The notes under the pieces were generated by a model. The model searched no databases. It saw only the letters and a list, made by a program, of their open reading frames with translations, and was not told where the DNA came from. Made by a program: the position numbers and the translations under genes. Below, piece by piece: positions 2,956 to 26,415 of a stretch of 50,010 bases of DNA. Position 1 is the first letter of the stretch; every line of letters begins with the position of its first letter. The DNA comes from Patescibacteria group bacterium (GTDB taxonomy: Bacteria > Patescibacteriota > Minisyncoccia > Phycocordibacterales > DATDWN01), in contig JAZKAN010000006.1 in assembly GCA_040389125.1 (NCBI GenBank), forward strand, positions 1 through 50,010. Reading direction: 5' to 3'.

Positions 2956-3423
2956 TTATGATAGATGTTTTTGAGCGTTTGTAACTACTTCATGTTCTTC
3001 CTCGGTAAGTTCAAAGTCACTTCCAAATTTCTTGAGTGGTTTTGAGAATACACTCACTCTCTCGCGAGAATAGAGACTGGAAATAACAACCCCGTCGCCC
3101 TTTTCGCTCACAAATGCGGTTGAAAAGCTCTGATTTCCGCCCTCGCCACTACCTTTGAATGGATTGAACCGCACAGTTTCCACTGCTTGCATACTACGTC
3201 CGAGACGCGTCTCGATTTGCTTGAAATATGTGATTGATTCGTCTTTAAATCGTGTCAGGTCCGCTACATTTTTGTGAGTGTGTGTCAATGTCTCTTCGAG
3301 AGATTTGGCACTACTTCCACCGAGGAGGCGTTTGAGTTTGATTTCTAACCTAACAATCCACAACACGAGCAATACGACAATACTAGAGGCTATGTAGATT
3401 GCTAGAATTGGGTCTAAAATCAT
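2956..3423 (-). CDS. DUF4446-like membrane-anchored protein
   Basis: Probable start MILDP at 3423 (TATAAT 7 nt upstream); TM helix then VRFNPFKGSGEGGNQSFS...GVVISSLYSRE motif. Confidence 0.8.
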   Translation of the reverse strand: MILDPILAIYIASSIVVLLVLWIVRLEIKLKRLLGGSSAKSLEETLTHTHKNVADLTRFKDESITYFKQIETRLGRSMQAVETVRFNPFKGSGEGGNQSFSTAFVSEKGDGVVISSLYSRERVSVFSKPLKKFGSDFELTEEEHEVVTNAQKHLS

Positions 3424-9984: not shown

Positions 9985-10785
9985 ATGGCACATCGGTGGA
10001 CAAAAATTGAGGAAAACAAAATTCGTTCGGAATTAATAAATTTGTACGTTACTGAAAATAAAACACTGAACGAAGTTTCGGTAATATTGGGAATTTCGGA
10101 GTCAACTGTTTTTCAGAGGTTGAGCAGACTAGGCATAAAGTCTCAACCGTATCTGAAACCAAATTATTTAAGAAAACCGAAAGATGTTCAACTTCCAAAA
10201 AAATATTCCGAGGATTTGGCTGAGTTTTTTGGAATTATGCTTGGTGATGGACACGTTAGTCACTTTCAAGTTGTTGTAAGTCTGGGCAATAAAGAAGTGT
10301 CTTATGCTGAGTATGTACGTTTATTTGTGAGAAGTATTTTTCATACAAATGTAAGAATTGCTACCAGAAAAACCGGATATCGGGATGTGTATTTTGGTTC
10401 AACGATTGTTACTTCATGGTTACGAAAAGAAGGATTGGTTAATAATAAAGTTAAATCTCAAGTTGATATTCCTGAATGGATTTTTCAGAGTCAGGAATTT
10501 ATGGAACGGTTTTTAAGAGGGTTTTTTGATACGGATGGATCTGTATATAAGTTACGATTTGGGATTCAGATTTCTCTTACAAATCTATCCACTCCATTAC
10601 TTGTCTCTTTACGTAAACTTCTTTTTGCGTTAGGATATAATCCATCAGAGATAAGTGCTGATAGGGTTTATCTTACGAGGGTCGCGGATGTCGAGCGTTT
10701 CTTTGTTGAAATACAACCAAAGAACAAAAAACATCAGGAGAGGTATAATCAATTTATCTCTAAATTAAGTGGGCAAAATGCGTAG
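9985..10785 (+). CDS. Free-standing double-motif LAGLIDADG endonuclease with N-terminal HTH
   Basis: LAEFFGIMLGDG and FLRGFFDTDG motifs; HTH KTLNEVSVILGISESTVFQRL; start at 9985 supported by TATAAT 9973-9978; stop codon lies inside tRNA-Tyr. Confidence 0.9.
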   Translation: MAHRWTKIEENKIRSELINLYVTENKTLNEVSVILGISESTVFQRLSRLGIKSQPYLKPNYLRKPKDVQLPKKYSEDLAEFFGIMLGDGHVSHFQVVVSLGNKEVSYAEYVRLFVRSIFHTNVRIATRKTGYRDVYFGSTIVTSWLRKEGLVNNKVKSQVDIPEWIFQSQEFMERFLRGFFDTDGSVYKLRFGIQISLTNLSTPLLVSLRKLLFALGYNPSEISADRVYLTRVADVERFFVEIQPKNKKHQERYNQFISKLSGQNA

Positions 10786-10863
10786 ATCGGATAGTGGCTA
10801 TTCCAGGAGACTGTAAATCTCCCGCCTTCAATGGCATCGGGGGTTCGAGTCCCTCTCTACGCA
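10780..10863 (+). tRNA. tRNA-Tyr(GTA)
   Basis: GCGTAGA/TCTACGC acceptor stem, GGAGA-CTGTAAA-TCTCC anticodon arm, long variable arm, GGTTCGAGTCC. Confidence 0.95.
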
Positions 10864-11113: not shown

Positions 11114-11186
11114 GGCGGGAGATGGAGGAATCGAACCCCCGACAAGGCGTTTGGAGTGCCTCGTTATACCACTTAACTAATCTCCC
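11113..11186 (-). tRNA. tRNA-Trp(CCA)
   Basis: Reverse complement GGGAGAT...AGGCA-CTCCAAA-CGCCT...GGTTCGATTCC...ATCTCCC-G-CCA. Confidence 0.93.
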
Positions 11187-13811: not shown

Positions 13812-13895
13812 TGCCGGAGGAGGGACTTGAACCCTCACGAGCTTGCGCCCACAGCATTTTGAGTGCTGCATGTTTACCAATTACATCACTCCGGC
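13812..13895 (-). tRNA. tRNA-Leu(CAA)
   Basis: Reverse complement GCCGGAG...CAGCA-CTCAAAA-TGCTG...GGTTCAAGTCCCTC-CTCCGGC-A. Confidence 0.95.
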
Positions 13896-13975: not shown

Positions 13976-15040
13976 ATGTCTCAATTTTATAACGACTCTA
14001 TATTCTGGATTGATGTTGAAAAGATAAGCCCAAACCCGTTTCAACCGAGACGTGAGTTTGATGAGATGCAACTACAATCTCTCGCGGATTCTATACGTCA
14101 GTACGGAGTCCTACAGGCTCTTGTGGTGACTCGCAAGGAGGTTGAAAAAGACGACGGAGGACTCGCGGTGCAGTATGAGCTCATAGCAGGTGAGAGACGT
14201 TTGCGTGCGTCGAAACTGGCAGGACTGACACAGGTACCAGTTCTCATAAAAGTTGGTGACGAGGCAAACGACCTCATGAAACTCGAACTTGCAATTATCG
14301 AGAACATTCAGCGTGAGGATTTAAATCCGGTTGACCGTGCACGTGCGTTCGAGAGACTTTCAACAGAGTTTGGATTCAAACATATCGCCATTGCAGAAAA
14401 AGTGGGCAAAAGTCGTGAGTATGTTTCGAACACGCTTCGCCTCCTCATGCTTCCTCCAGAAATTCTCGATGCGCTCAGTCAGGGTAAAATATCCGAAGGA
14501 CATTCGAGGCCTCTCATGATGCTCAGCGATCGTCCTGACGAACAGAATACTGTGTTCAAGGAGATCATGTTCAAGAAACTTTCTGTACGCGAGACGGAAG
14601 CAATCGCGCGTCGTATTGCATATGACAAGATTCGCAAGAAGGGTGCAATTTTGGATCCGGAAACTCAGGAACTGGAGGAGAAACTAACAGAGACTCTTGG
14701 TACCCGTGTCTCTATTGAAAAACGTGAAAATGGTGGCAAGATTCTGATTGATTTCTTTTCTGCAGATGATCTTCGTGGAATTTTGGATCTTATTAAAACC
14801 AACAAAAAAGCATCATCTCCTACAGAAATGATGGATCGGCACATAGAGGCAAACCCGATTCCACCAGTCAACGGGTGGATACCCAACTATGCAGAGTCAA
14901 AACCGGAAATAGTCGAAATGAGTCTCGAAGATATTAAAAATGCAAATAAAAATGTGGACGATAGGTTGCCGGAGGAAATAAAAAAAGAGGAAAATACGGA
15001 TACGGATGAGATGTATTCGATCAAGAATTTCAGTATCTAA
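13976..15040 (+). CDS. parB: ParB/Spo0J partition protein with acidic C-terminal extension
   Basis: PNPFQPRREF, LIAGERRLRA, IIENIQREDLNP, GKSREYVSNTLRL. Confidence 0.93.
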   Translation: MSQFYNDSIFWIDVEKISPNPFQPRREFDEMQLQSLADSIRQYGVLQALVVTRKEVEKDDGGLAVQYELIAGERRLRASKLAGLTQVPVLIKVGDEANDLMKLELAIIENIQREDLNPVDRARAFERLSTEFGFKHIAIAEKVGKSREYVSNTLRLLMLPPEILDALSQGKISEGHSRPLMMLSDRPDEQNTVFKEIMFKKLSVRETEAIARRIAYDKIRKKGAILDPETQELEEKLTETLGTRVSIEKRENGGKILIDFFSADDLRGILDLIKTNKKASSPTEMMDRHIEANPIPPVNGWIPNYAESKPEIVEMSLEDIKNANKNVDDRLPEEIKKEENTDTDEMYSIKNFSI

Positions 15041-15178
15041 ATTTCAAATCTCGTTGAGTGCACTTGCTGTGTAGGCGCATCACGGAGTCCGTGTAGAGAC
15101 GAGTGCGAGGAAAATTTTCAGCAGAAAATTATTCCGGCGACTACACAGCAAGTGCCGAGAAAGAGATTTGAAATTTAG
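15037..15178 (+). repeat. Family-1 three-way-junction palindromic element, copy A
   Basis: 16-bp outer and 15-bp inner perfect stems around the 66-nt core 15075-15140. Confidence 0.9.
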
Positions 15179-16708
15179 TTACTTCTTCTCTTTCTCAAGA
15201 AAAGCACGAATGTGTCGTTTTGCCATTGTAGTTTTACAGTAGTCAATCCACTTGCGATTTGGCTTTGAGTTTTTCTTTGTATCAATCTCTACTCGATCAC
15301 CGTTTTTGAGTGTGGTGTAGATTGCCACAAACTTCCCATTAACTTTTGCTCCCACGACATGCAGCCCGATAACAGAGTGAACAGCAAATGCAAAATCAAT
15401 TACTGATGAATCAATGGGCAGATCGATCACATCACCTTTAGGAGTAAACACAAAAATTCTTTCTTCAAAAAAGTCTGTCTTTACCTCGTCGAGAAATTCA
15501 TCTTCCCCGATATCTTTTTGATATTCTACAAGTTCCTTGACCCATTTTGGCACATCGTCGAGGTTCAGAGTTGATTTAATTTTTCCAGCATTTTCGTTCC
15601 AATTTTCAGTAACGGGTAGAATTTTCTTTACCCACAGCAAACTCGGGTTTGTTATTTTTTGTTTTTTTGGATTTTGCTGATTTTGTTTATATGAAATATG
15701 TGATGCAATACCATACTCTGCTTCTTGGGACATCTCCGGAGTTTTTATTTGCACCTCGATTATTCCACCGTCACCAGTAAAAATCGTGGTATGCAGAGAC
15801 TGATAGCCGTTTGGTTTTGGAAAAGCAATATAGTCTTTGATGCGACCAGGTAGCGGTCGCCAGTTACTATGAATAATTCCAAGTACACGGTAGCAGTCAG
15901 CGACAGTTGGTACGATAACGCGGAGTGCAGATATGTCATGTACTTTGTCGATATCTTTTCTCTGTAGTTTTTTGTACAGACTATACAATCCCTTGAGGCG
16001 ATATTCTGTTTTAAAATTCGTCACCTCATTTTTTGCAAGTTCTTTTTTGAGAGTTTTTGTAAATTTTTCAAGAGCTTCTATTTCTGCACCTTGTCTCTGT
16101 TTTACCAGATTTGCCACTTCTGCATACTCTTTTGGAAGCACGAATTTGAACGCGAGATCCTCGAGCTCACGATTGAGTTTTCTGATTCCGAGGCGGTAGG
16201 CGATAGGTGCATAGATTTCGAGTGTCTCTGTCGCAATGCGCAGTTGCTTCTCGACCGGCACATACTCGAGCGTTTGCATATTGTGTAGACGATCACAGAG
16301 TTTGATAATGAGCACACGAATATCCTGCGACATTGCCACAAAAAGTTTACGGAGACTTTCCGTATGGTGTTTACCCGTACCACGATACTTTATTTTTCCA
16401 AGCTTGGTCACTCCCTCGACAAGAAACCGAATTTCCTTGCCAAACTCCTTTTCAATTTCCTCGGCAGAAACAGGCACATCTTCAATAGTGTCATGTAGGA
16501 ACCCTGCAGAAATAGTCGTCGCACCCATACCAAGATCCGCAAGATTTTTGGCAGTAGCAAAAAGATGATTGAAATACGGCTCGCCACTTTTTCTTTTTTG
16601 CTCCCCATGCGCCTTGGCAGCAAAATCATACGCCTTGCGTACTAATGCCATATCGCTATCCGTCGGATTGTGGAGTAATGAGATTATCTGTTGAATATCG
16701 TTTGCCAT
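15179..16708 (-). CDS. RelA/SpoT (p)ppGpp synthetase/hydrolase (HD-SYNTH-TGS)
   Basis: QKRKSGEPYFNH, LHDTIED, IKLCDRLHNM, KPNGYQSLHT, VFTPKGDV; probable start MANDI (TATAAT 6 nt upstream). Confidence 0.93.
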   Translation of the reverse strand: MANDIQQIISLLHNPTDSDMALVRKAYDFAAKAHGEQKRKSGEPYFNHLFATAKNLADLGMGATTISAGFLHDTIEDVPVSAEEIEKEFGKEIRFLVEGVTKLGKIKYRGTGKHHTESLRKLFVAMSQDIRVLIIKLCDRLHNMQTLEYVPVEKQLRIATETLEIYAPIAYRLGIRKLNRELEDLAFKFVLPKEYAEVANLVKQRQGAEIEALEKFTKTLKKELAKNEVTNFKTEYRLKGLYSLYKKLQRKDIDKVHDISALRVIVPTVADCYRVLGIIHSNWRPLPGRIKDYIAFPKPNGYQSLHTTIFTGDGGIIEVQIKTPEMSQEAEYGIASHISYKQNQQNPKKQKITNPSLLWVKKILPVTENWNENAGKIKSTLNLDDVPKWVKELVEYQKDIGEDEFLDEVKTDFFEERIFVFTPKGDVIDLPIDSSVIDFAFAVHSVIGLHVVGAKVNGKFVAIYTTLKNGDRVEIDTKKNSKPNRKWIDYCKTTMAKRHIRAFLEKEKK

Positions 16709-16748
16709 ATTCTGATTATACATACAAAGTGGTTGTTTGGAGAGGGGA

Positions 16749-16777
16749 TTGACAAACGACTCCAATGGGTGTATAAT
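16749..16777 (+). promoter_or_regulatory. Consensus sigma70 promoter of ORFan 16802
   Basis: TTGACA-17 nt-TATAAT, then AGGAG. Confidence 0.8.
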
Positions 16778-16801
16778 ACCATATAGGAGAGTACTCTACA
16801 C

Positions 16802-17134
16802 ATGACAAGCGAATCGAAAAGGATTTTTGTTATTTGTGCAGTTTTTGGTAGTCTTATCGGATTCTGTGCGACAAAAATGTTTGCGTATCAGCTGGAGATT
16901 TCCGGCTATCGCACACAAATTCAAGAAGTTTGTCGTACCTTCGAAGAAGTATCCGACTGGGTTCCTGCTGGAAAGCAGGAGGTCAAAATCTCATGCATTG
17001 ACAGTTCGTCCAGAAACGAGATTGTAATCCGTCTTTGGGGTGTAGATCACAACCAACCGATAATTGGGTATGTGATTGAAAGGGATGGGCGTAGGGAACC
17101 ATTCAAATCCCTGGACTTTCAATTGAAGAAGTAA
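16802..17134 (+). CDS. Hypothetical exported/membrane-anchored small protein
   Basis: N-terminal hydrophobic helix; own promoter, SD and hairpin terminator (~17138-17175). Confidence 0.65.
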   Translation: MTSESKRIFVICAVFGSLIGFCATKMFAYQLEISGYRTQIQEVCRTFEEVSDWVPAGKQEVKISCIDSSSRNEIVIRLWGVDHNQPIIGYVIERDGRREPFKSLDFQLKK

Positions 17135-17209
17135 TTTTCCCGCCAGCACGGCAGAAAGACTGTCGCTCGGCGGGATTTCTGTTTACAAATTTAAATAATA
17201 GAATCACCA

Positions 17210-17378
17210 CTAAACAAATTTCACTCATACATTTTCAGAGCATCCGCAGACCTTGAGCATGGTTTTGTCAAAGTCCCGAGTATTCTCGGGTTCATTGACA
17301 AATCAAGGTCGAGGACCGAAAAAACCTTTCGCAGGAAAGGTTTTTGTCTCTGAAAATGTATGAGTGAAATTTGTTTAG
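17210..17378 (+). repeat. Family-2 three-way-junction palindromic element, copy D
   Basis: 31-bp perfect terminal IR enclosing CATCCGCA-[stem]-GAGGACCGAA-[stem, GCAG loop]-TGT. Confidence 0.9.
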
Positions 17379-17381
17379 GAG

Positions 17382-19646
17382 TTACTCAGCTTTCTTTTTC
17401 TTTGCGAACCCTCGCTTCTTTTTCTCCTGTGCAAAAATCTCGAGAGCACGAGGAAGTTCGATCGTATACACATCATCATCCTTGAGTGATCGGAAATCCT
17501 TTTGATGTACAACATACGGACCAAACATTCCAATATTCGCAGTTATCTTTTCTCCCGTATCCGGATGAACACCCAGCACACGAGGCAAAGTCAAATACTT
17601 GAGCGCATCCTGTAGCGTAATCGTCTCCGGATCCTTGCCCTTTGGCACACTCGCCATTTTTGGCTTTGGTAGTTTTACTGCTTTTGGCTTTTTGATTTTC
17701 TTTCCGTTTTCATCAAACTCGGGTACAGCTTTTGCAGATGACTTTTTCGGCATTTCACCGAGCTGTACATACGGACCATATCTGCCGATGAGCACAAAAA
17801 TAGGCAGTCCCGTTTCCGGATCAATTCCGACTGGTTCATCTTTTTTAATTTCCTTGCCTTCCATGGTTAGTGCTCCCTCGCAGTCTGGATATCGAGCGCA
17901 TGATAGAAATTTACCACCACGAGAAAGCTTAATAATCATTTTGCCACCACACACAGGGCATTTGAATTTTGGATCAGCATCACCAAGGTTTGTGACCTTG
18001 TCCATTTTCTCTTTGCTTTTGACCTCGGCAAGAAATGGCTTGTAAAACGTCTTGAGCATTTTTGCATATTCCTCTTTGCCTTCTGCGATAAGGTCGAGAC
18101 GGTCTTCCATGTCGGCAGTAAAACTGTCACTGATATATCCGCCGAAATTGGCTTCGAGAAAACTAGACACAACATCTCCGGTGTCAGTAGGCACAAGTGC
18201 CTTGTTTATTTTCTCGACATATCCACGGTCCTCGATTGTTTTAATAATTGAGGCGTATGTCGATGGACGACCAATGCCACGTTTTTCGAGTTCCTTTACG
18301 AGACCTGCCTCAGAATATCGTGTCGGTGGTTCGGTATGTTTTTCCTCGGTTAAAACTTTTTGTAAATCCAAATCTTCTCCCACAGTAACTGGTGGGAGTT
18401 CAACATCCTCGCCACGCGATGGGGGATCTCCGAGAAGCCAGCCGGGAGAAGTGATGCGAGAACCTGTAATAGAAAAGTCAGGAATTTCTTCACCAGGTTT
18501 TGCGTCTTTAATGTTCGCAGTAATTTTCGTACGCAAGGTCTGTGCATCTTTCATCTGTGAACTGACCGCACGTCGCCAGATGAGTGTGTAGAGTTTCTGT
18601 TGCTCATCATTCAGTCCCGCCTTCTCCACATCAAAATGTGTTGGACGTATTGCCTCGTGTGCCTCCTGTGCATTTTTGCTTTTTGCTGAATACGTTCTGA
18701 TCTGCACGTATTCCTTTCCAAATTTCTTCTCGATGACTTGTGTGATCTGACTGAGCGCCATTTGACTGAGGTTCGTTGAGTCAGTACGCATGTATGTAAT
18801 ATGTCCTGCCTCGTATAGTCGCTGTGCAATACCCATCGTACGAGATGGCGCAAACCCGAGTCGTGATGAGGCTGACTGTTGTAGAGTAGAAGTAATAAAC
18901 GGTGCACGTGGAGTTTTCTTTACATCGGATTCTTTTACATCTTTGACTATCCAGGATCCCTTCTCGGCAATAGTCACAATTCGATCCACACTTTTCTGGT
19001 CGAGTGGCTCTTCCTCGCAGATCACTGTAAATGGTACTTTTTTGCTACTCTCTACCTCTGCAGAAATAACCCAAAATGAGTGTGAAATAAATGCACGAAT
19101 TTCTCTTTCGCGTTCCATGACAATGCGGAGTGCGGGTGATTGCACACGACCCGCAGAGAGTCCGTAACGAACTTTTTTCCAGATCAGTCCCGAGAGGTCG
19201 TATCCCACCAGTCTGTCGAGCACACGACGTGCTTCCTGTGCTTGTTTCAGGTTGTCATCAATGTCTCGCGGATGTTGTATTGCCTCTGTCACGGCTTCTT
19301 TTGTGATTTCATGAAATACAACACGCTGTGGGTGTTTGAGTCCGATTGCGTCCGCAATGTGCCACGCGATTGCCTCGCCCTCGCGGTCGGGGTCAGTTGC
19401 AAGTAATACCACACTTGATTCCTTTGCGAGTGATTTTATTTCTGCTACCACTTTTTCCTTGCCCTTGGATATTTCATAGTGAGGCACGAAACCTGCTTCA
19501 ATATCAATTGCTGCTTTGTTTGATTTTGGCAAATCACGAACATGACCCACAGATGCGACCACGGTGTATTCACCATTCAAATATTTTGAAATTGTTTTTG
19601 CTTTTGCGGGGGACTCGACGATGAGTAGTTTCATCTTTTTATTCAT
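17382..19646 (-). CDS. topA: DNA topoisomerase I
   Basis: LIVESPAKAKTI, ATDPDREGEAI, SAGRVQS, ITYMRTDS, GIGRPSTYA; zinc ribbon and Topo_C repeats; probable start MNKKMK. Confidence 0.96.
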   Translation of the reverse strand: MNKKMKLLIVESPAKAKTISKYLNGEYTVVASVGHVRDLPKSNKAAIDIEAGFVPHYEISKGKEKVVAEIKSLAKESSVVLLATDPDREGEAIAWHIADAIGLKHPQRVVFHEITKEAVTEAIQHPRDIDDNLKQAQEARRVLDRLVGYDLSGLIWKKVRYGLSAGRVQSPALRIVMEREREIRAFISHSFWVISAEVESSKKVPFTVICEEEPLDQKSVDRIVTIAEKGSWIVKDVKESDVKKTPRAPFITSTLQQSASSRLGFAPSRTMGIAQRLYEAGHITYMRTDSTNLSQMALSQITQVIEKKFGKEYVQIRTYSAKSKNAQEAHEAIRPTHFDVEKAGLNDEQQKLYTLIWRRAVSSQMKDAQTLRTKITANIKDAKPGEEIPDFSITGSRITSPGWLLGDPPSRGEDVELPPVTVGEDLDLQKVLTEEKHTEPPTRYSEAGLVKELEKRGIGRPSTYASIIKTIEDRGYVEKINKALVPTDTGDVVSSFLEANFGGYISDSFTADMEDRLDLIAEGKEEYAKMLKTFYKPFLAEVKSKEKMDKVTNLGDADPKFKCPVCGGKMIIKLSRGGKFLSCARYPDCEGALTMEGKEIKKDEPVGIDPETGLPIFVLIGRYGPYVQLGEMPKKSSAKAVPEFDENGKKIKKPKAVKLPKPKMASVPKGKDPETITLQDALKYLTLPRVLGVHPDTGEKITANIGMFGPYVVHQKDFRSLKDDDVYTIELPRALEIFAQEKKKRGFAKKKKAE

Positions 19647-19680
19647 GCTGTTGATTATTACTGTAAAAAATATTTTTTGC

Positions 19681-19817
19681 AAATCAAAAAAACTCTTTCT
19701 CGTCATATGTTTTCTGTCGCCGGAATAATTTTCTGCTGAAAATTTTCCTCGCACTCGCGTCTTCACGCGCTCCGTGATGCGCCAGAAAACATATGACTTC
19801 GACGAGTTTTTTGATTT
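19681..19817 (-). repeat. Family-1 element, copy B
   Basis: Same 66-nt core on the minus strand; different 15-bp inner stem GTCATATGTTTTCTG/CAGAAAACATATGAC. Confidence 0.9.
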
Positions 19818-19889
19818 CCACAGATGACGTCGGTTGGGGGATTTGACAAAAAGGGTAAATAGGAGTTCAATTAAATGAGGAGATGACAT

Positions 19890-20078
19890 ATGGCTACGGC
19901 CACAAAAACCGCATTACAAAACGGCAACACCAAGTATTGCACAACTCAGTGCAATACCTTCGTTACCGCCGGCGATCCTGACAAGATCGAGTACAATGGA
20001 TCCCGCTTTCATCGGGGATGCCTTGTCAAGACAAATGAGGGAAAGGAGATACTGGCTCTGGTGTGTAAGCGTAAATAG
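19890..20078 (+). CDS. Small Cys/His-containing hypothetical protein
   Basis: GAGGAG SD; TTGACA-17-TTCAAT promoter 19843-19871; CTTQC...FHRGC; hairpin 20099-20125. Confidence 0.6.
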   Translation: MATATKTALQNGNTKYCTTQCNTFVTAGDPDKIEYNGSRFHRGCLVKTNEGKEILALVCKRK

Positions 20079-20161
20079 GAGCCAATTTTGATTTGAAGAA
20101 GGCGCCCCCGATGTGGTGGCGCCTTTAGTGTTTACAAAATATTTTCAAAACTTTGGAAATA

Positions 20162-21028
20162 TTACTTTAAGTGGATTTCTCCCATGACTTCCTCAATCAG
20201 TCCCTTTATTTCCATGGTGGCGAGTATCGTCTGCGTTACATACACAGGCTTGCCGAGTTCGCGAATTATCGCATCACGGGAAAGGGGTTCTCGGAGAATG
20301 TTGATTACTTCGTGTTCATCAGTCGAGCAGTCACTGTAGTCTCGTGATTCAAACAAATCGTCATGTGGTCGTAGTCCGAGCGCGCTCACGATATCACTTG
20401 ACTGTGTGATCGGTGTTGCACCAAGTCGGAGTAGCATGTGAGGACCTTCGGATGTTTTAGAAAAAATAGAGTGGGGAACAGTGAACACATCGCGATTGTA
20501 TTCAATTGCGTATTTAGAAGTGATGAGTGTGCCAGATTTTAATTCTGCCTCGATCACAAGTGTCGCGTGTGACATGCCCGCAATGATGCGATTGCGTTGT
20601 GGAAAGTTTGAAGGATATGACGGTTCCTTATCAGGAAACTCAGATAGGAGTGTCCCGCCACTTTCCACTATTTCTTCGGCAAGTCCTCTATGTTGTGCGG
20701 GGTAGAGGAATTTAGGATCGAGACCAGATCCAGGAATCGCGACCGTACGTAACCCGGCATTTAGTGCCGCTCGGTGAGCTATGGAGTCGATTCCGAGTGC
20801 CAGTCCCGATACAATCACGATCGGGTATCCACGCAGACCCTCGATCAATTTTTCACATACTGCCTTGCCGTACTCACTGTATTTGCGCGCGCCGACGACA
20901 GCCAGGTATTTTATTTCGTCACTGTCCCGATCTGGCAACTCACCCACAATTCGCATTTCTTTTGGCGGATCATTTATTTCAAGGAGTAGTTTGGGAAAGT
21001 CCTTTTTATGCAGAGTCTCTATCTTCAT
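20162..21028 (-). CDS. dprA: DNA-processing protein DprA/Smf
   Basis: AVVGARK, VSGLALGIDSIAH, FPQRNRIIAG, KSGTLIT; upstream of topA. Confidence 0.95.
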   Translation of the reverse strand: MKIETLHKKDFPKLLLEINDPPKEMRIVGELPDRDSDEIKYLAVVGARKYSEYGKAVCEKLIEGLRGYPIVIVSGLALGIDSIAHRAALNAGLRTVAIPGSGLDPKFLYPAQHRGLAEEIVESGGTLLSEFPDKEPSYPSNFPQRNRIIAGMSHATLVIEAELKSGTLITSKYAIEYNRDVFTVPHSIFSKTSEGPHMLLRLGATPITQSSDIVSALGLRPHDDLFESRDYSDCSTDEHEVINILREPLSRDAIIRELGKPVYVTQTILATMEIKGLIEEVMGEIHLK

Positions 21029-21130
21029 ATATATAGTATAGCAGAGGATTCTGAAACAATTACAATATATTTAGACTAGATAAATCCCGCAGTTTTCATA
21101 TTTCCAACTTTGGTATACTATATACATACT

Positions 21131-22411
21131 ATGTTAGATATTAAATTCATTCGGGAAAACAAAGACTTGGTGGCACTTGGTGCAAAGAAAAAGCACATCG
21201 AGTTTGATGTAGACGCACTCATTACTACCGATGACAAACGTCGCGAGCTTCTTGCAAGTATCGAGAAAAAGCGTGCAGAACAAAATGAGGTTAGTGAGAA
21301 AATTGTACGCACACAGGAGCAATCCGAAAAATCAGATATGATTTCAAAAATGCAGACACTAAAAGTAGAACTGCAAAAAGAAGAGGAAGAACTCAAAACC
21401 GTCATGCACGACTGGCAGATGCGCATGGTAACGGTCCCAAACATTCCCGATATGTCAGTGCCAGAGGGCAAGGATGATAGCGAAAATAAGGAAGTGAAAG
21501 TCTGGGGCGAGATTCCTAAATTTGATTTTACTCCACGGGATCACATTGAACTCATGACAAATCTCGGTATGCTTGATCTCGAACGTGGTACAAAAGTTGC
21601 GGGGTTTCGTGGATATTTTCTAACCGGAGACGGAGCGCGACTTCAGTTTGCCCTGTGGAATTTTGTGCAAGATTTTTTTAATAAAAAAGAAGGATTTAGA
21701 CCGATGATCGTGCCATCTCTCGTACGACGTGAGCCGTTTATGGGCACAGGCTATCTGCCACAGAGCGAGGAGGATTTGTATAAAACGCAGGACGGTGAAT
21801 ATCTCTCGGGTACAGCAGAGGTTGCAACCATGGCTTTCTATATGGACGAGGTTTTAGAGAAAAAAGATTTACCAATAAAAATGCTCGCATTTTCAAATGC
21901 GTTTCGACGCGAGGCGGGTAGTCATGGCAAAGATACAAAAGGAATTTTGCGTGTGCACGAGTTTTATAAATACGAGCAGGTGGTGCTGTGCGAGGCGTCC
22001 CATACGGAGTCTGTAAAATACCACGAGGAAATCCAGATGAATACTGAGGAACTAACACAGGCCCTCGAACTCCCATACCATGTCGTAGTAAACTGTGGCG
22101 GCGATTTGGGTCTCGGTCAAGTTAAAAAATACGACATCGAAGTATGGCTTCCATCCGAAGGTAAATACCGTGAGACAGGCTCTGCGTCATACTTTCATGA
22201 TTTCCAAACACGACGACTCAACATCCGCTATCGCGATGACGATGGTAAAATGAAATTTGTGCACTCGCTCAATAACACCGCACTCTCTGGTAGGCCGCTC
22301 ATTATGATTATCGAAAACTTCCAAAATGCCGACGGCTCGATTCGTATCCCAACCGCCTTGCAACCCTACATGGGAGGGCAAACCATCATCACCAAGCCCC
22401 AGTCAAACTAA
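21131..22411 (+). CDS. serS: Seryl-tRNA synthetase
   Basis: MLDIKFIREN, GTAEV, FRREAGSHG, RVHEFYKYEQ, VHSLNNTA. Confidence 0.97.
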   Translation: MLDIKFIRENKDLVALGAKKKHIEFDVDALITTDDKRRELLASIEKKRAEQNEVSEKIVRTQEQSEKSDMISKMQTLKVELQKEEEELKTVMHDWQMRMVTVPNIPDMSVPEGKDDSENKEVKVWGEIPKFDFTPRDHIELMTNLGMLDLERGTKVAGFRGYFLTGDGARLQFALWNFVQDFFNKKEGFRPMIVPSLVRREPFMGTGYLPQSEEDLYKTQDGEYLSGTAEVATMAFYMDEVLEKKDLPIKMLAFSNAFRREAGSHGKDTKGILRVHEFYKYEQVVLCEASHTESVKYHEEIQMNTEELTQALELPYHVVVNCGGDLGLGQVKKYDIEVWLPSEGKYRETGSASYFHDFQTRRLNIRYRDDDGKMKFVHSLNNTALSGRPLIMIIENFQNADGSIRIPTALQPYMGGQTIITKPQSN

Positions 22412-22412
22412 T

Positions 22413-22543
22413 AATTTTAATCTCGTTGAACAAAAGATTTTCTGGCGCATCACAGAGCGCGTGAAGACGCGAGTGCGAGGAAAATTTCTAGCAAGAAATT
22501 ATTCCGGCGACAGAAAATCTTTTGAGAATAAGAGATTAAAATT
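22413..22543 (+). repeat. Family-1 element, copy C
   Basis: Same core with compensatory AATTTCT-AGCA-AGAAATT hairpin; 14-bp inner and 12-bp outer stems. Confidence 0.9.
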
Positions 22544-22553
22544 TTAACATTCA

Positions 22554-23393
22554 ATGCCCAAATACTCATCACATCGCCAAGAAGAGTATATAAAGAAAAA
22601 ACACAAAAGACGACGAATCAAAGTCATTATTTTCTTCGTATTATTTTTTCTTTCCATTGGTTTTCTCATTTGGATTGCACATCGCCCGTCACTGCGTATT
22701 TCTGAAGTTGAACTCTCGGGTGGAGTACTCGTGACACAACAGGAAGTTTCTACAGAAGTCATACAATTTATTTCTGGTTCCTACATCTGGGTGTTTCCAA
22801 AAAATAACGCACTGCTCTACCCACAGAAAAAACTTGAGAAATATTTGAAGGATCATTTCAAACGTATCGATACAATTCATGTGGATACAAAAAATCTCCA
22901 CACCATGAGCGTGGAAATTTCTGAACGCAAATCTGAGGCACTGTGGTGTGGCGGTGTTCCAGGAGAAACAGAGGGTGAACAGGGACAGTGCTATTTTATG
23001 GATGCAAACAGCACAATTTTTGCAGAAGCACCGCAGTTTTCGGGTGATGCATATTTTAAATACTACGGATTGGTAACGACTGACTCACCCATTGGTTTAG
23101 AGTACATGGCGACGAGTACGGATTTTGCTGAACTTTCAAATTTCGTACAAAACGCTCGGAGATTACAAATAAAACCAGAATATGTTGTTGCAAAAGATAC
23201 AGGAGAATTTACTCTTGTTCTCGCTGGTGGTGGCAAAATTTATTTTGATAATAAAGAACCTCTGACTAAAGTGGCAGACAACCTCGAGGCTCTTCTGCGC
23301 ACCCCCGCACTAGTCCCGTCTACAAACGCTGATTTGCCGATCGATTATATTGATCTCAGATTTGGTAATAAATTGTTTTATAAACTGAAATAA
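22554..23393 (+). CDS. FtsQ/DivIB-like cell division protein
   Basis: Basic N-terminus, single TM helix, POTRA-like segment, VEISERK, C-terminal YIDLRFGNKLFYK. Confidence 0.8.
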   Translation: MPKYSSHRQEEYIKKKHKRRRIKVIIFFVLFFLSIGFLIWIAHRPSLRISEVELSGGVLVTQQEVSTEVIQFISGSYIWVFPKNNALLYPQKKLEKYLKDHFKRIDTIHVDTKNLHTMSVEISERKSEALWCGGVPGETEGEQGQCYFMDANSTIFAEAPQFSGDAYFKYYGLVTTDSPIGLEYMATSTDFAELSNFVQNARRLQIKPEYVVAKDTGEFTLVLAGGGKIYFDNKEPLTKVADNLEALLRTPALVPSTNADLPIDYIDLRFGNKLFYKLK

Positions 23394-26344: not shown

Positions 26345-26415
26345 TGGGAGATCGTCTAACGGTAGGACAGAGGCCTTTGAAGCCTTTAATTGGGGTTCGA
26401 TTCCCTGTCTCCCAG
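26345..26415 (+). tRNA. tRNA-Gln(TTG)
   Basis: TGGGAGA/TCTCCCA acceptor stem, GAGGC-CTTTGAA-GCCTT anticodon arm, GGTTCGATTCC. Confidence 0.95.

Follow-up and report, generated by a model that had tools for sequence, protein, structure and literature searches.

A lineage-specific superfamily of structured intergenic repeats with a conserved branched core in patescibacterial genomes

What kind of element keeps its fold while changing its stems, and sits between genes that have nothing to do with each other? The question is raised by positions 1 to 50,010 of contig JAZKAN010000006.1 (assembly GCA_040389125.1) from a Patescibacteria group bacterium, hereafter the window, in which an original prediction made from the letters alone had noted three copies of a 66-nt core with compensatory changes. 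We find that all three belong to a superfamily specific to this lineage and made up of short (~125–180 nt), non-coding repeats dispersed in intergenic spacers. The interpretation that we favor, with about even confidence, is that of a non-autonomous, structure-dependent dispersed repeat, similar in its behavior to REPIN and ERIC elements, in which the folded single strand is the selected object. The source assembly comprises 526 kb in 8 contigs, with 41% G+C and a completeness of 71%, and members were scored with a covariance model of the element family (R1). All three copies were found at the predicted positions and on the predicted strands, and a fourth, divergent member lies between them:

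15037–15178, plus strand: copy 1, whole element (R1 120.2 bits; minimum free energy −61.4 kcal/mol, z −8.5)
15037–15052 / 15163–15178, plus strand: outer stem of copy 1
15053–15059 / 15156–15162, plus strand: internal loop of copy 1
15060–15074 / 15141–15155, plus strand: inner stem of copy 1
15075–15140, plus strand: three-way-junction core of copy 1
17206–17378, plus strand: fourth, divergent member, or "large variant" (R1 48 bits, E 1.7e-9 at 17215–17373; minimum free energy −93.3 kcal/mol, z −13.1)
17206–17210, plus strand: ACCAC box of the fourth member
17210–17241 / 17347–17378, plus strand: 32-bp uninterrupted stem of the fourth member
19681–19817, minus strand: copy 2, whole element, with the model unit at 19693–19806 and the core at 19717–19782 (R1 127.3 bits; minimum free energy −55.2 kcal/mol, z −7.6)
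22413–22543, plus strand: copy 3, whole element, with the model unit at 22422–22534 and the core at 22445–22510 (R1 129.1 bits; minimum free energy −49.5 kcal/mol, z −6.8)

An 18-mer of the core occurs exactly three times in the 50-kb window, where 0.05 occurrences are expected and none of 100 shuffles reaches three. With their flanks, copies 1–3 have folding energies far below those of shuffled sequence; their complementary strands fold about equally well, which is inherent to hairpins. In the fourth member the junction core is enlarged and carries a long P2 arm. The copies of the predicted family are thus real, but its scale had been set too low, since the superfamily is genome-wide and lineage-wide and has a further member within the very range that had been flagged.

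Each unit is a long hairpin of 125–180 nt, in which an AT-rich outer stem, a conserved 6 × 6 internal loop (GUYGAR opposite GAGAAA) and a variable stem of 14–15 bp lead to a cap formed by a three-way junction. Helix P1 runs from the outer stem through the 6 × 6 loop and the 14–15-bp stem of free sequence to a G-A mismatch and the closing CGC/GCG. The junction strands are AU (J1/2), CGA (J2/3) and G (J3/1). P2a is CNC/GN'G, its middle pair being A-U in 13, G-C in 5 and U-A in 3 of 21 copies, and is followed by a GGA/GA internal loop and by P2b, which consists of 3 bp, a bulged A, 1 bp and an RUGWA pentaloop. P3 has 11 bp (4 bp, a bulged A and 7 bp) and is capped by an ANNA tetraloop. The bulged A, the variable 14–15-bp inner stem, the internal loop (GTYGAR / GAGAAA as DNA) and the variable outer stem had all been recognized correctly, and the compensatory exchanges GTC/GAC versus GCG/CGC and TTTTC/GAAAA versus TTTCT/AGAAA are reproduced in both pairwise and MAFFT alignments. 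By contrast, the pairing of CACG with CGTG that was implied by the notation is wrong: covariation pairs C-N-C with G-N'-G of GAGNGCG, and the loop GUG does not covary with the C-N-C strand. Variants are of three types, all of which keep the junction. P2b may be lengthened to a long helix (145–168 nt), J1/2 may carry a 22-nt insertion (source-genome copy C1:95308), and the internal loop is dropped in 3 of the 21 source-genome copies of the main core type (F1), as it is in the fourth window member.

The evidence for the fold comes from covariation. A structure of 37 pairs was written on a MAFFT alignment of the 21 source-genome copies, which had been built before the structure was imposed. Standard pairs occupy 97.0% of its 777 cells, compared with 75.6 ± 1.0% in shuffles and 39–55% when the partners are slid, so that the compensatory pairing first noted in three copies holds across all 21. 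Both sides have changed in 27 of the 37 pairs, and 0 of 500 shuffles reach the observed covariation. Among 73 distinct copies from relatives, which were aligned to the model and hence with a bias towards it, 95.6% of 2645 cells are paired and 34 of the 37 pairs have changed on both sides; the covariation is therefore upheld in both larger alignments. Structure pairs also rank at the top in mutual information with average product correction, which adds one further inner-stem pair and joins loop letters 1 and 7 of P2b. The ranking gives no sign of a pseudoknot or of long-range covariation outside the helices. About 20 unpaired positions are 83–99% conserved across genera, including the U of J1/2, the GGA/GA loop, the GA of J2/3, both bulged adenines, the G of J3/1 and the adenines at either end of the P3 loop.

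Which strand is selected is suggested by the non-canonical pairs. In the relatives, G-U cells outnumber A-C cells by 58 to 22, a modest margin in copies that are not independent and in which one column supplies 16 of the G-U cells. Since the excess is found both in copies that are sense to the neighboring genes (16:4) and in antisense copies (23:15), the strand read in the original prediction appears to be favored irrespective of gene direction. Helices that grow at their tips while the junction stays the same, loops of the tandem G-A type and bulged adenines are, in our view, the behavior of structured RNAs, and together with the excess of G-U over A-C they suggest that selection preserves the fold of this one strand most likely as RNA. 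Junction and internal loop, held 14–15 bp apart, are probably the marks read by a protein, which would use them for propagation of the element or for processing of the transcript.

How far does the family extend? A search with nhmmer seeded with the three window copies found 21 close copies in the source genome at E<1e-8, and R1 recovers the same 21 at 98–131 bits. R1 also matches a third core type (66 bits) and a second core type (49 bits) in this genome; according to a motif scan, these types (F2, F3) have the same scaffold, i.e. the same internal-loop letters and the same stem length. With the large variants, at least seven divergent relatives stand beside the 21 close copies. Two extra matches to the 5' motif, at C1 48769 and 50392, are ordinary coding or spacer sequence, and no loop motifs less than 100 nt apart, as in an "empty scaffold", were found. 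Beyond the source genome, 456 R1 matches (E≤0.001) occur in 46 of 61 related genomes, with up to 43 in one 0.9-Mb genome. They are found in 35 of 36 genomes of the same family and in 10 of 24 from other families of the order, whereas among 150 other genomes sampled evenly across the phylum and scanned with stricter filters that may miss weak relatives, a single genome of the same class has matches (four). The exact core pattern is present in 39 stretches of species-representative genomes. All of them are metagenome-assembled genomes (MAGs) labelled Zambryskibacteria, Parcubacteria, Minisyncoccia or "uncultured Candidatus Saccharibacteria", the last of which we take to be an automatic label; the Zambryskibacteria and Parcubacteria labels bear out the supposed origin from the Candidate Phyla Radiation (CPR). 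Viral contigs searched with the exact IUPAC core pattern gave no match, nor did phage and plasmid collections searched with blastn.

The elements are often paired or clustered, with inverted neighbors 14 nt apart, direct neighbors 18 nt apart or three copies within 1.4 kb (for example G022:C83:31106-31346, L040 1501-1707, L026 1501-2176 and source-genome C3 29735-31143). Such clusters may be insertion hot spots or tolerant spacers.

Orthologous spacers reveal gain and loss. The dprA–topA spacer, which holds copy 2, contains an element in only 2 of 28 orthologues, those of the source genome and of its relative G002. The G002 copy is a mosaic that joins the 5' half of one subfamily to the 3' half of another, and its P1 pairing is mismatched. 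In the 28 relatives (loci L088–L117) this spacer measures 28–685 nt and contains assorted small open reading frames (ORFs) in either orientation, and the topA promoter-like motif is conserved. Likewise, for a copy in relative G035 no counterpart was seen at that site in any of the other 23 congeners matching the query; empty sites were read directly in G065 (4 nt) and G064 (~25 nt) and deduced from match coordinates in G030 (79 nt) and G016 (94 nt). Beside the G035 copy lies a repeat of ~180 nt (L020 1654-1840), which has dozens of matching places at 70–86% identity in all congeners of genus g7 and whose fold is that of a large variant of the superfamily, sharing the P3 hairpin and its bulged A. 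At one locus, this large-variant copy is common to G035, G067 and G074 and shows compensatory changes in P1 and P3.

A third comparison concerns the spacer between parB and the relA/spoT-like gene, occupied by copy 1 in the window. In 28 genomes it measures 6–61 nt (20 genomes), 141–178 nt (7) or 798 nt (1). R1 scores the insert of the source genome at 120 bits, that of G009 at 104, that of G062 at 41.5 and that of G029, next to parB, at 27.8. These members belong to different subfamilies and lie in both orientations; elements have colonized this spacer repeatedly. Four other long spacers contain long hairpin inserts that R1 does not score, although in G032 the scaffold loop letters can be recognized by eye in reverse orientation. 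In the source genome, the insert is placed exactly between the two native stop codons, without a direct repeat.

Mosaicism is also evident within the source genome. Pairs of copies (C1:4813 with C3:3276; C1:203855 with C3:25867) are 94–96% identical over the central 76–91 nt, whereas their distal stems are unrelated; either the center is homogenized by gene conversion or the center and the arms have separate histories. Recent duplicates share only 4–7 nt beyond the model unit, or 17–24 nt on the 5' side in one subfamily. AAATCTC...GAGATTT is common at the ends, the outer stems otherwise differ, and no parent insertion sequence (IS) was found. The idea that outer stems arise from an inverted target duplication, prompted by G062 in which the 3' arm equals the native relA end, was dropped because recent duplicates share 7-bp outer stems. 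In their gain and loss, occurrence in either orientation, clustering and exchange of segments, the units act like non-autonomous DNA that is either mobile or spread by recombination; mobility itself, rather than the latter, is inferred.

The search for a mobilizing enzyme covered seven families in five element-rich genomes (the source genome, G009, G013, G002 and G022). Y1_Tnp and RVT_1 are present in the same three of the five, with no Y1_Tnp found in the source genome or in G002. The rve family is present in three genomes and was not found in G009 or G013, the two richest in elements; DDE_Tnp_1 is present in one, and the TnpB domain and DDE_3 in none. Only the Phage_integrase family (Xer-like) occurs in all five, with 1–2 genes per genome. 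From these results, no single recognized enzyme family accompanies the elements. In some relatives there are up to six copies per genome of RAYT-like, IS200-type Y1 transposase genes (open frames of 181–243 aa). Among 11 Y1 loci in G009, G013 and G022, only one has an R1 match within 3 kb, at a distance of ~1.5 kb, and the one locus read, L118 (G009:C16), is flanked by a different, 21-nt palindrome of its own (2575-2640, 3321-3345); the RAYT-like genes are a separate REP/RAYT-like system. On these three grounds, the absence from the matches of two element-rich genomes, the distance and the other palindrome, mobilization by a RAYT was rejected. Source-genome contig C8 (1059 bp) is an rve-type open frame (DDE integrase core) and probably a collapsed multi-copy IS.

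Several points weigh against a dispersed repeat selected as a folded strand. No mobilizing enzyme was found among the seven families, a result obtained with a source genome that is 71% complete and without a search for other transposase families. No target-site duplication is visible at parB|relA, the one well-resolved comparison of filled and empty sites; a duplication of 1–2 nt could still have occurred there, as the flanks are AT-rich and the genomes only 72–83% alike. Beyond ~7 nt, the termini differ even between related copies. The repeated occupation of the parB|relA spacer could reflect selection for a hairpin rather than a preference of insertion. The large-variant copy with compensatory changes shared by three species suggests selection in place, as for a host function, although gene conversion from other copies could mimic such in-place compensation. 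As to the strand, the source genome alone has more A-C (9) than G-U (5) cells, and the counts are not independent events because the copies are related.

The placement of the copies bears on whether the host makes use of them. The genes around copies 1–3 were assigned as follows, the listed topA ORF (17382-19889) being over-extended:

13976–15040, plus strand: parB, flanking copy 1 (Pfam ParB_N, HTH_ParB, ParB_C)
15179–16765, minus strand: relA/spoT-like gene, convergent with parB across copy 1 (Pfam HD_4, RelA_SpoT, TGS)
17382–19646, minus strand: topA (Pfam Topoisom_bac, Toprim, Zn_ribbon_Top1)
20162–21028, minus strand: dprA, upstream neighbor of the copy 2 spacer (Pfam DNA_processg_A, DprA_WH)
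21110–22411, plus strand: serS, upstream neighbor of copy 3 (Pfam Seryl_tRNA_N, tRNA-synt_2b)

The gene contexts agree with those described originally: convergent for copy 1, the dprA/topA spacer with a possible divergent ORF for copy 2, and tandem for copy 3. The parB stop codon (15038-15040) lies within the 5' arm of copy 1, and the relA/spoT stop codon (15179-15181, minus strand) abuts its 3' arm. Copy 2 is situated directly upstream of a topA promoter-like site (19683-19654) and adjoins a divergent promoter-like TTGACA; on its other side lies a possible divergent ORF of 62 aa (19890-20078) that has no Pfam match. Copy 3 starts 1 nt past the serS stop codon (22409-22411) and ends 10 nt before the ATG of a hypothetical ORF (22554-23393), and the fourth member abuts the topA stop codon. 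Genome-wide, with crude longest-ORF gene calls, the 21 source-genome copies were read as 9 tandem-sense, 5 tandem-antisense, 3 convergent and 4 divergent, and the 73 copies of relatives as 12 tandem-sense, 26 tandem-antisense, 12 convergent and 6 divergent, with 3 inside an ORF call and 14 at locus edges. Combined, the 78 classified spacers (51 tandem, 17 convergent, 10 divergent) do not depart from the source-genome background of 361/71/71 (chi-square p 0.15). The prediction that this is not a simple terminator or cis-leader is supported by the presence of copies in both orientations and in all spacer types. None of 12 terminator-like sites in 14900-22700 is an element, and a terminator identity also disagrees with the copies in divergent spacers and upstream of promoters. 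A riboswitch or cis-leader disagrees with the unrelated neighbors (parB, relA, topA, dprA, serS), with both orientations and with presence at orthologous sites, which is not conserved. Replication does not order the copies either: seven of eight on contig C1 follow a replication-strand rule, but local GC skew at the source-genome copies is negative in 10 and positive in 11, and the rule fails genome-wide. In relatives the ratio is 40:24, which tracks the antisense excess there. At ~65–80 kb of contig C1, a sign change in GC skew and a switch in the strand bias of the genes mark a terminus or origin of replication.

These data can be set against the possibility that the element is a cis-acting RNA module of the host, its hairpin and junction serving as the target to which a host RNA-binding protein would bind or at which a host RNase would cut. 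The module would punctuate, stabilize, insulate or terminate transcripts, with copies kept where they are useful. The gap to the gene end is often 0–14 nt and that to the next start 12–45 nt, and owing to this tight packing between stop codon and next start many copies must be co-transcribed, in either sense, as such a module would be. The family member or plain hairpin in the parB|relA spacer of several genomes, the orthologous copies that keep P1 and P3 by compensatory changes in three species, and the scarcity of decayed remnants in the source genome (three weak partial nhmmer matches) point in the same direction. However, 22 copies are sense and 29 antisense to the flanking genes among 96, yet the unpaired letters of the core are conserved on one strand only. 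The 10 divergent spacers among 78 are about the background share, copy 2 stands between a divergent promoter-like site and the topA promoter, and the terminator scan flags no element. Moreover, 20 of the 28 parB|relA spacers are of only 6–61 nt, and three of these have a short plain hairpin and none a family member. A host module is unlikely in our judgment.

Among side observations on placement, an ACCAC box lies upstream of the hairpin, 2–3 nt from its base, in 8 of the 27 source-genome members listed (C4:7589, C2:10777, C3:1430, C3:25867, C1:102918, C1:194330, C1:36056 and C1:4813), in four core types, and also in the fourth window member, and in only ~4 of 73 copies of relatives; it was seen at loci L025, L026, L080, L082 and L165. 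It is often preceded by a −10-like hexamer (TATACT, TAAAAT, TAGAAT), with a terminator-like hairpin 12–26 nt further upstream. The box has two possible readings, as a promoter or start of transcription and as the 5' terminus of a subfamily; judged by eye, only about 8 of 14 cases agree with an own promoter, a weak indication in AT-rich DNA. On the 3' flanks, TATAAT-like boxes ~7–13 nt before the downstream ATG (e.g. C1:4813, C3:30171, C3:25867, C1:194330) are so near the ATG as to suggest leaderless or very short-leader mRNAs.

Returning to a dispersed repeat selected for its fold, a bolder version of it would see in the junction core a functional RNA fold of a new kind, a self-processing ribozyme or else a ribonucleoprotein handle, that defines a transposase-less, RNA-structure-driven mobile element of one CPR order, with the 14–15-bp spacing serving as a molecular ruler. 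We regard this as distinctly unlikely. Another alternative, to which we give a low probability, is that the sequence might encode a new small catalytic or ligand-binding RNA present in many copies, for example a self-cleaving ribozyme whose products would be held together by the long closing stem. The high conservation of ~20 unpaired positions and the compact three-way junction with modular helix expansions are what one might expect of it, and no known family matches. Stem, internal loop, second stem and multi-helix junction also follow one another in a way reminiscent of some small ribozymes. In particular, twister-sister has a similar order of elements and a multi-copy occurrence of unknown purpose in bacterial genomes; in contrast to it, the elements match no Rfam ribozyme model even at E≤10 and have a stem of 14–15 bp between loop and junction. 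This stem would separate the internal loop from the arms of the junction by more than the contacts in ribozymes of this kind allow. The mutual information contains no pseudoknot signal, 3 of the 21 F1 copies and the fourth window member lack the internal loop, and half of the copies would be transcribed only as the complement. Resemblances to HDV-like (hepatitis delta virus-like), hammerhead and hairpin ribozymes, K-turn, loop-E, Y-RNA, parS and signal recognition particle RNA, tested with Rfam only, were rejected because the covarying pairs or the junction strands of the element misfit.

Alternatively, the units could be single-stranded DNA (ssDNA) substrates of a structure-reading recombinase or HUH transposase (REPIN/RAYT-, IS200/IS605- or attC-like), with the bulges and loops as protein marks. 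attC and REP sites are recognized as sequence-free, structure-conserved hairpins with extrahelical bases. The present elements resemble them in this respect; in addition, no target duplication was seen, the pairs are almost wholly Watson–Crick (G-U 2.2% of cells in relatives), and RAYT-like Y1 genes exist in some relatives. On the other hand, Y1 genes were not found in G002 in spite of its 26 R1 matches and 95% completeness, and the Y1 loci show the poor association with elements described above. No TnpB was found, there is no cassette array, the source genome has no replication-strand bias (10:11), and, as DNA, a three-way junction whose helices have 3 bp and whose loop has 8 nt would be marginal. 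This possibility carries a slim probability. Very improbable is a guide-RNA-like system with the variable 14–15-bp stem as a spacer against phage or other DNA, since, although every copy places a stem sequence of its own between two conserved motifs whose distance is fixed and unusual RNA-guided systems are described in CPR genomes (in PMC12045711), the stems are related by descent (the TTTTCTG-proximal half, for one, recurs across genomes), the 21 source-genome stems have no exact match elsewhere in that genome and five one-mismatch matches, which is the chance level, and the copies are dispersed singletons rather than arrays with no associated effector gene evident, Tas not having been searched for.

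Is the element a known one under another name? None of the 4227 models of Rfam 15, small ribozymes included, matches an element at the gathering score, and copies 1–3 match nothing even at E≤10, in agreement with the original view of a new family. The fourth member matches only models of plant miRNA hairpins far below their gathering scores (MIR821, 32.5 bits versus 249; MIR8562, 27.2 versus 211), and at nine loci with diverse variants only MIR837 (26.5 bits versus 117) was matched, over one element. In a full-text literature search, with subscription journals and supplementary files outside its scope, no account of a repeat of this kind from these bacteria came up. In their behavior the elements are closest to REPINs, to structured repeats of the ERIC and bcr1 type and to MITEs (miniature transposable elements with inverted repeats). 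REPINs, the subject of PMC3116915 and PMC3337134, are short non-coding hairpins with tens of copies per genome, intergenic and in both orientations, lineage-restricted and persistent, with pairing kept. However, they have conserved arms and a free spacer, whereas the elements here have a conserved center (the three-way junction) and free arms. They also differ in the RAYT, which was not found in the source genome or G002, the RAYT-like gene of a relative going with another palindrome.

ERIC/IRU elements of enterobacteria and bcr1-type repeats of the Bacillus cereus group are imperfect palindromes of ~125–155 nt in spacers, with variants that have internal insertions at fixed points, reported compensatory changes and a function that is unknown or loosely linked to mRNA. 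They belong to other lineages and no sequence relation was found; the present elements have a branched, sequence-conserved core and a conserved internal loop. MITEs such as Correia and RUP, on which there are reviews (PMC10969869, PMC3184786), are likewise non-autonomous, small, non-coding, multi-copy, dispersed and polymorphic in presence and absence. Unlike in these, no long terminal inverted repeats that are conserved and held in common with an IS were recognized in the elements, a target duplication was not seen at the parB|relA site, and no tested transposase or reverse transcriptase family is found in all five element-rich genomes. Integron attC sites (57–141 nt) keep structure while sequence varies, have extrahelical bases and bear a variable, sometimes branched terminal structure. 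They follow each cassette in one orientation beside intI and pair R''/R' and L''/L' boxes, whereas the elements are scattered singletons in both orientations in which GUYGAR is unpaired with GAGAAA. No cassette array was seen, and the genomes have 1–2 Phage_integrase-family genes each, intI not having been searched for specifically. TIGR-Tas systems, also known from CPR bacteria, share variable but consistently palindromic stems around conserved motifs; in the description given in PMC12045711, they are short units arrayed in tandem next to a tas gene with a Nop domain, and they carry box C/D motifs and, in the loop, two spacers. This identity was rejected, as the elements are dispersed rather than tandem and have a 66-nt conserved junction, with no search made for a tas gene. 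In architecture, the elements are not like their closest counterparts: the branched center is conserved and the arms are free, the internal loop lies at a fixed distance, and there is no visible target-site duplication or parent IS.

CPR genomes of 0.5–0.9 Mb leave hardly any DNA to spare, yet a 130-nt unit occurs in tens of copies in this lineage, and its fold is kept across genera sharing only ~75–85% protein identity. With hundreds of examples and 34 of 37 pairs covarying, it is among the best covariation-supported nucleic-acid structures without a name. If selfish, it would be a mobile element without a recognizable enzyme, pointing to an unknown route of mobility in organisms that are unculturable alone; if useful, it would represent a new RNA–protein or catalytic module of CPR gene expression.

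Apart from the elements, the window has seven tRNA genes (4-76, 840-921, 940-1011, 10780-10863, 11116-11186, 13812-13895 and 26345-26415), which are its sole Rfam matches at the gathering score. Contigs in Logan from three DNA runs stop at elements and none bridges an empty site, so they are uninformative on excision. Short-read unitigs of the probable source run, inspected in the window at 14835-15201, 19606-19972 and 22175-22541, end at every element (e.g. 15074/15141, 19544/19755 and 22484/22488), and their summed depth at elements is 5–6 times that of the flanks, indicating that the family fragments assemblies of these genomes. R1 can be used to annotate this family, which breaks short-read assemblies at every copy.

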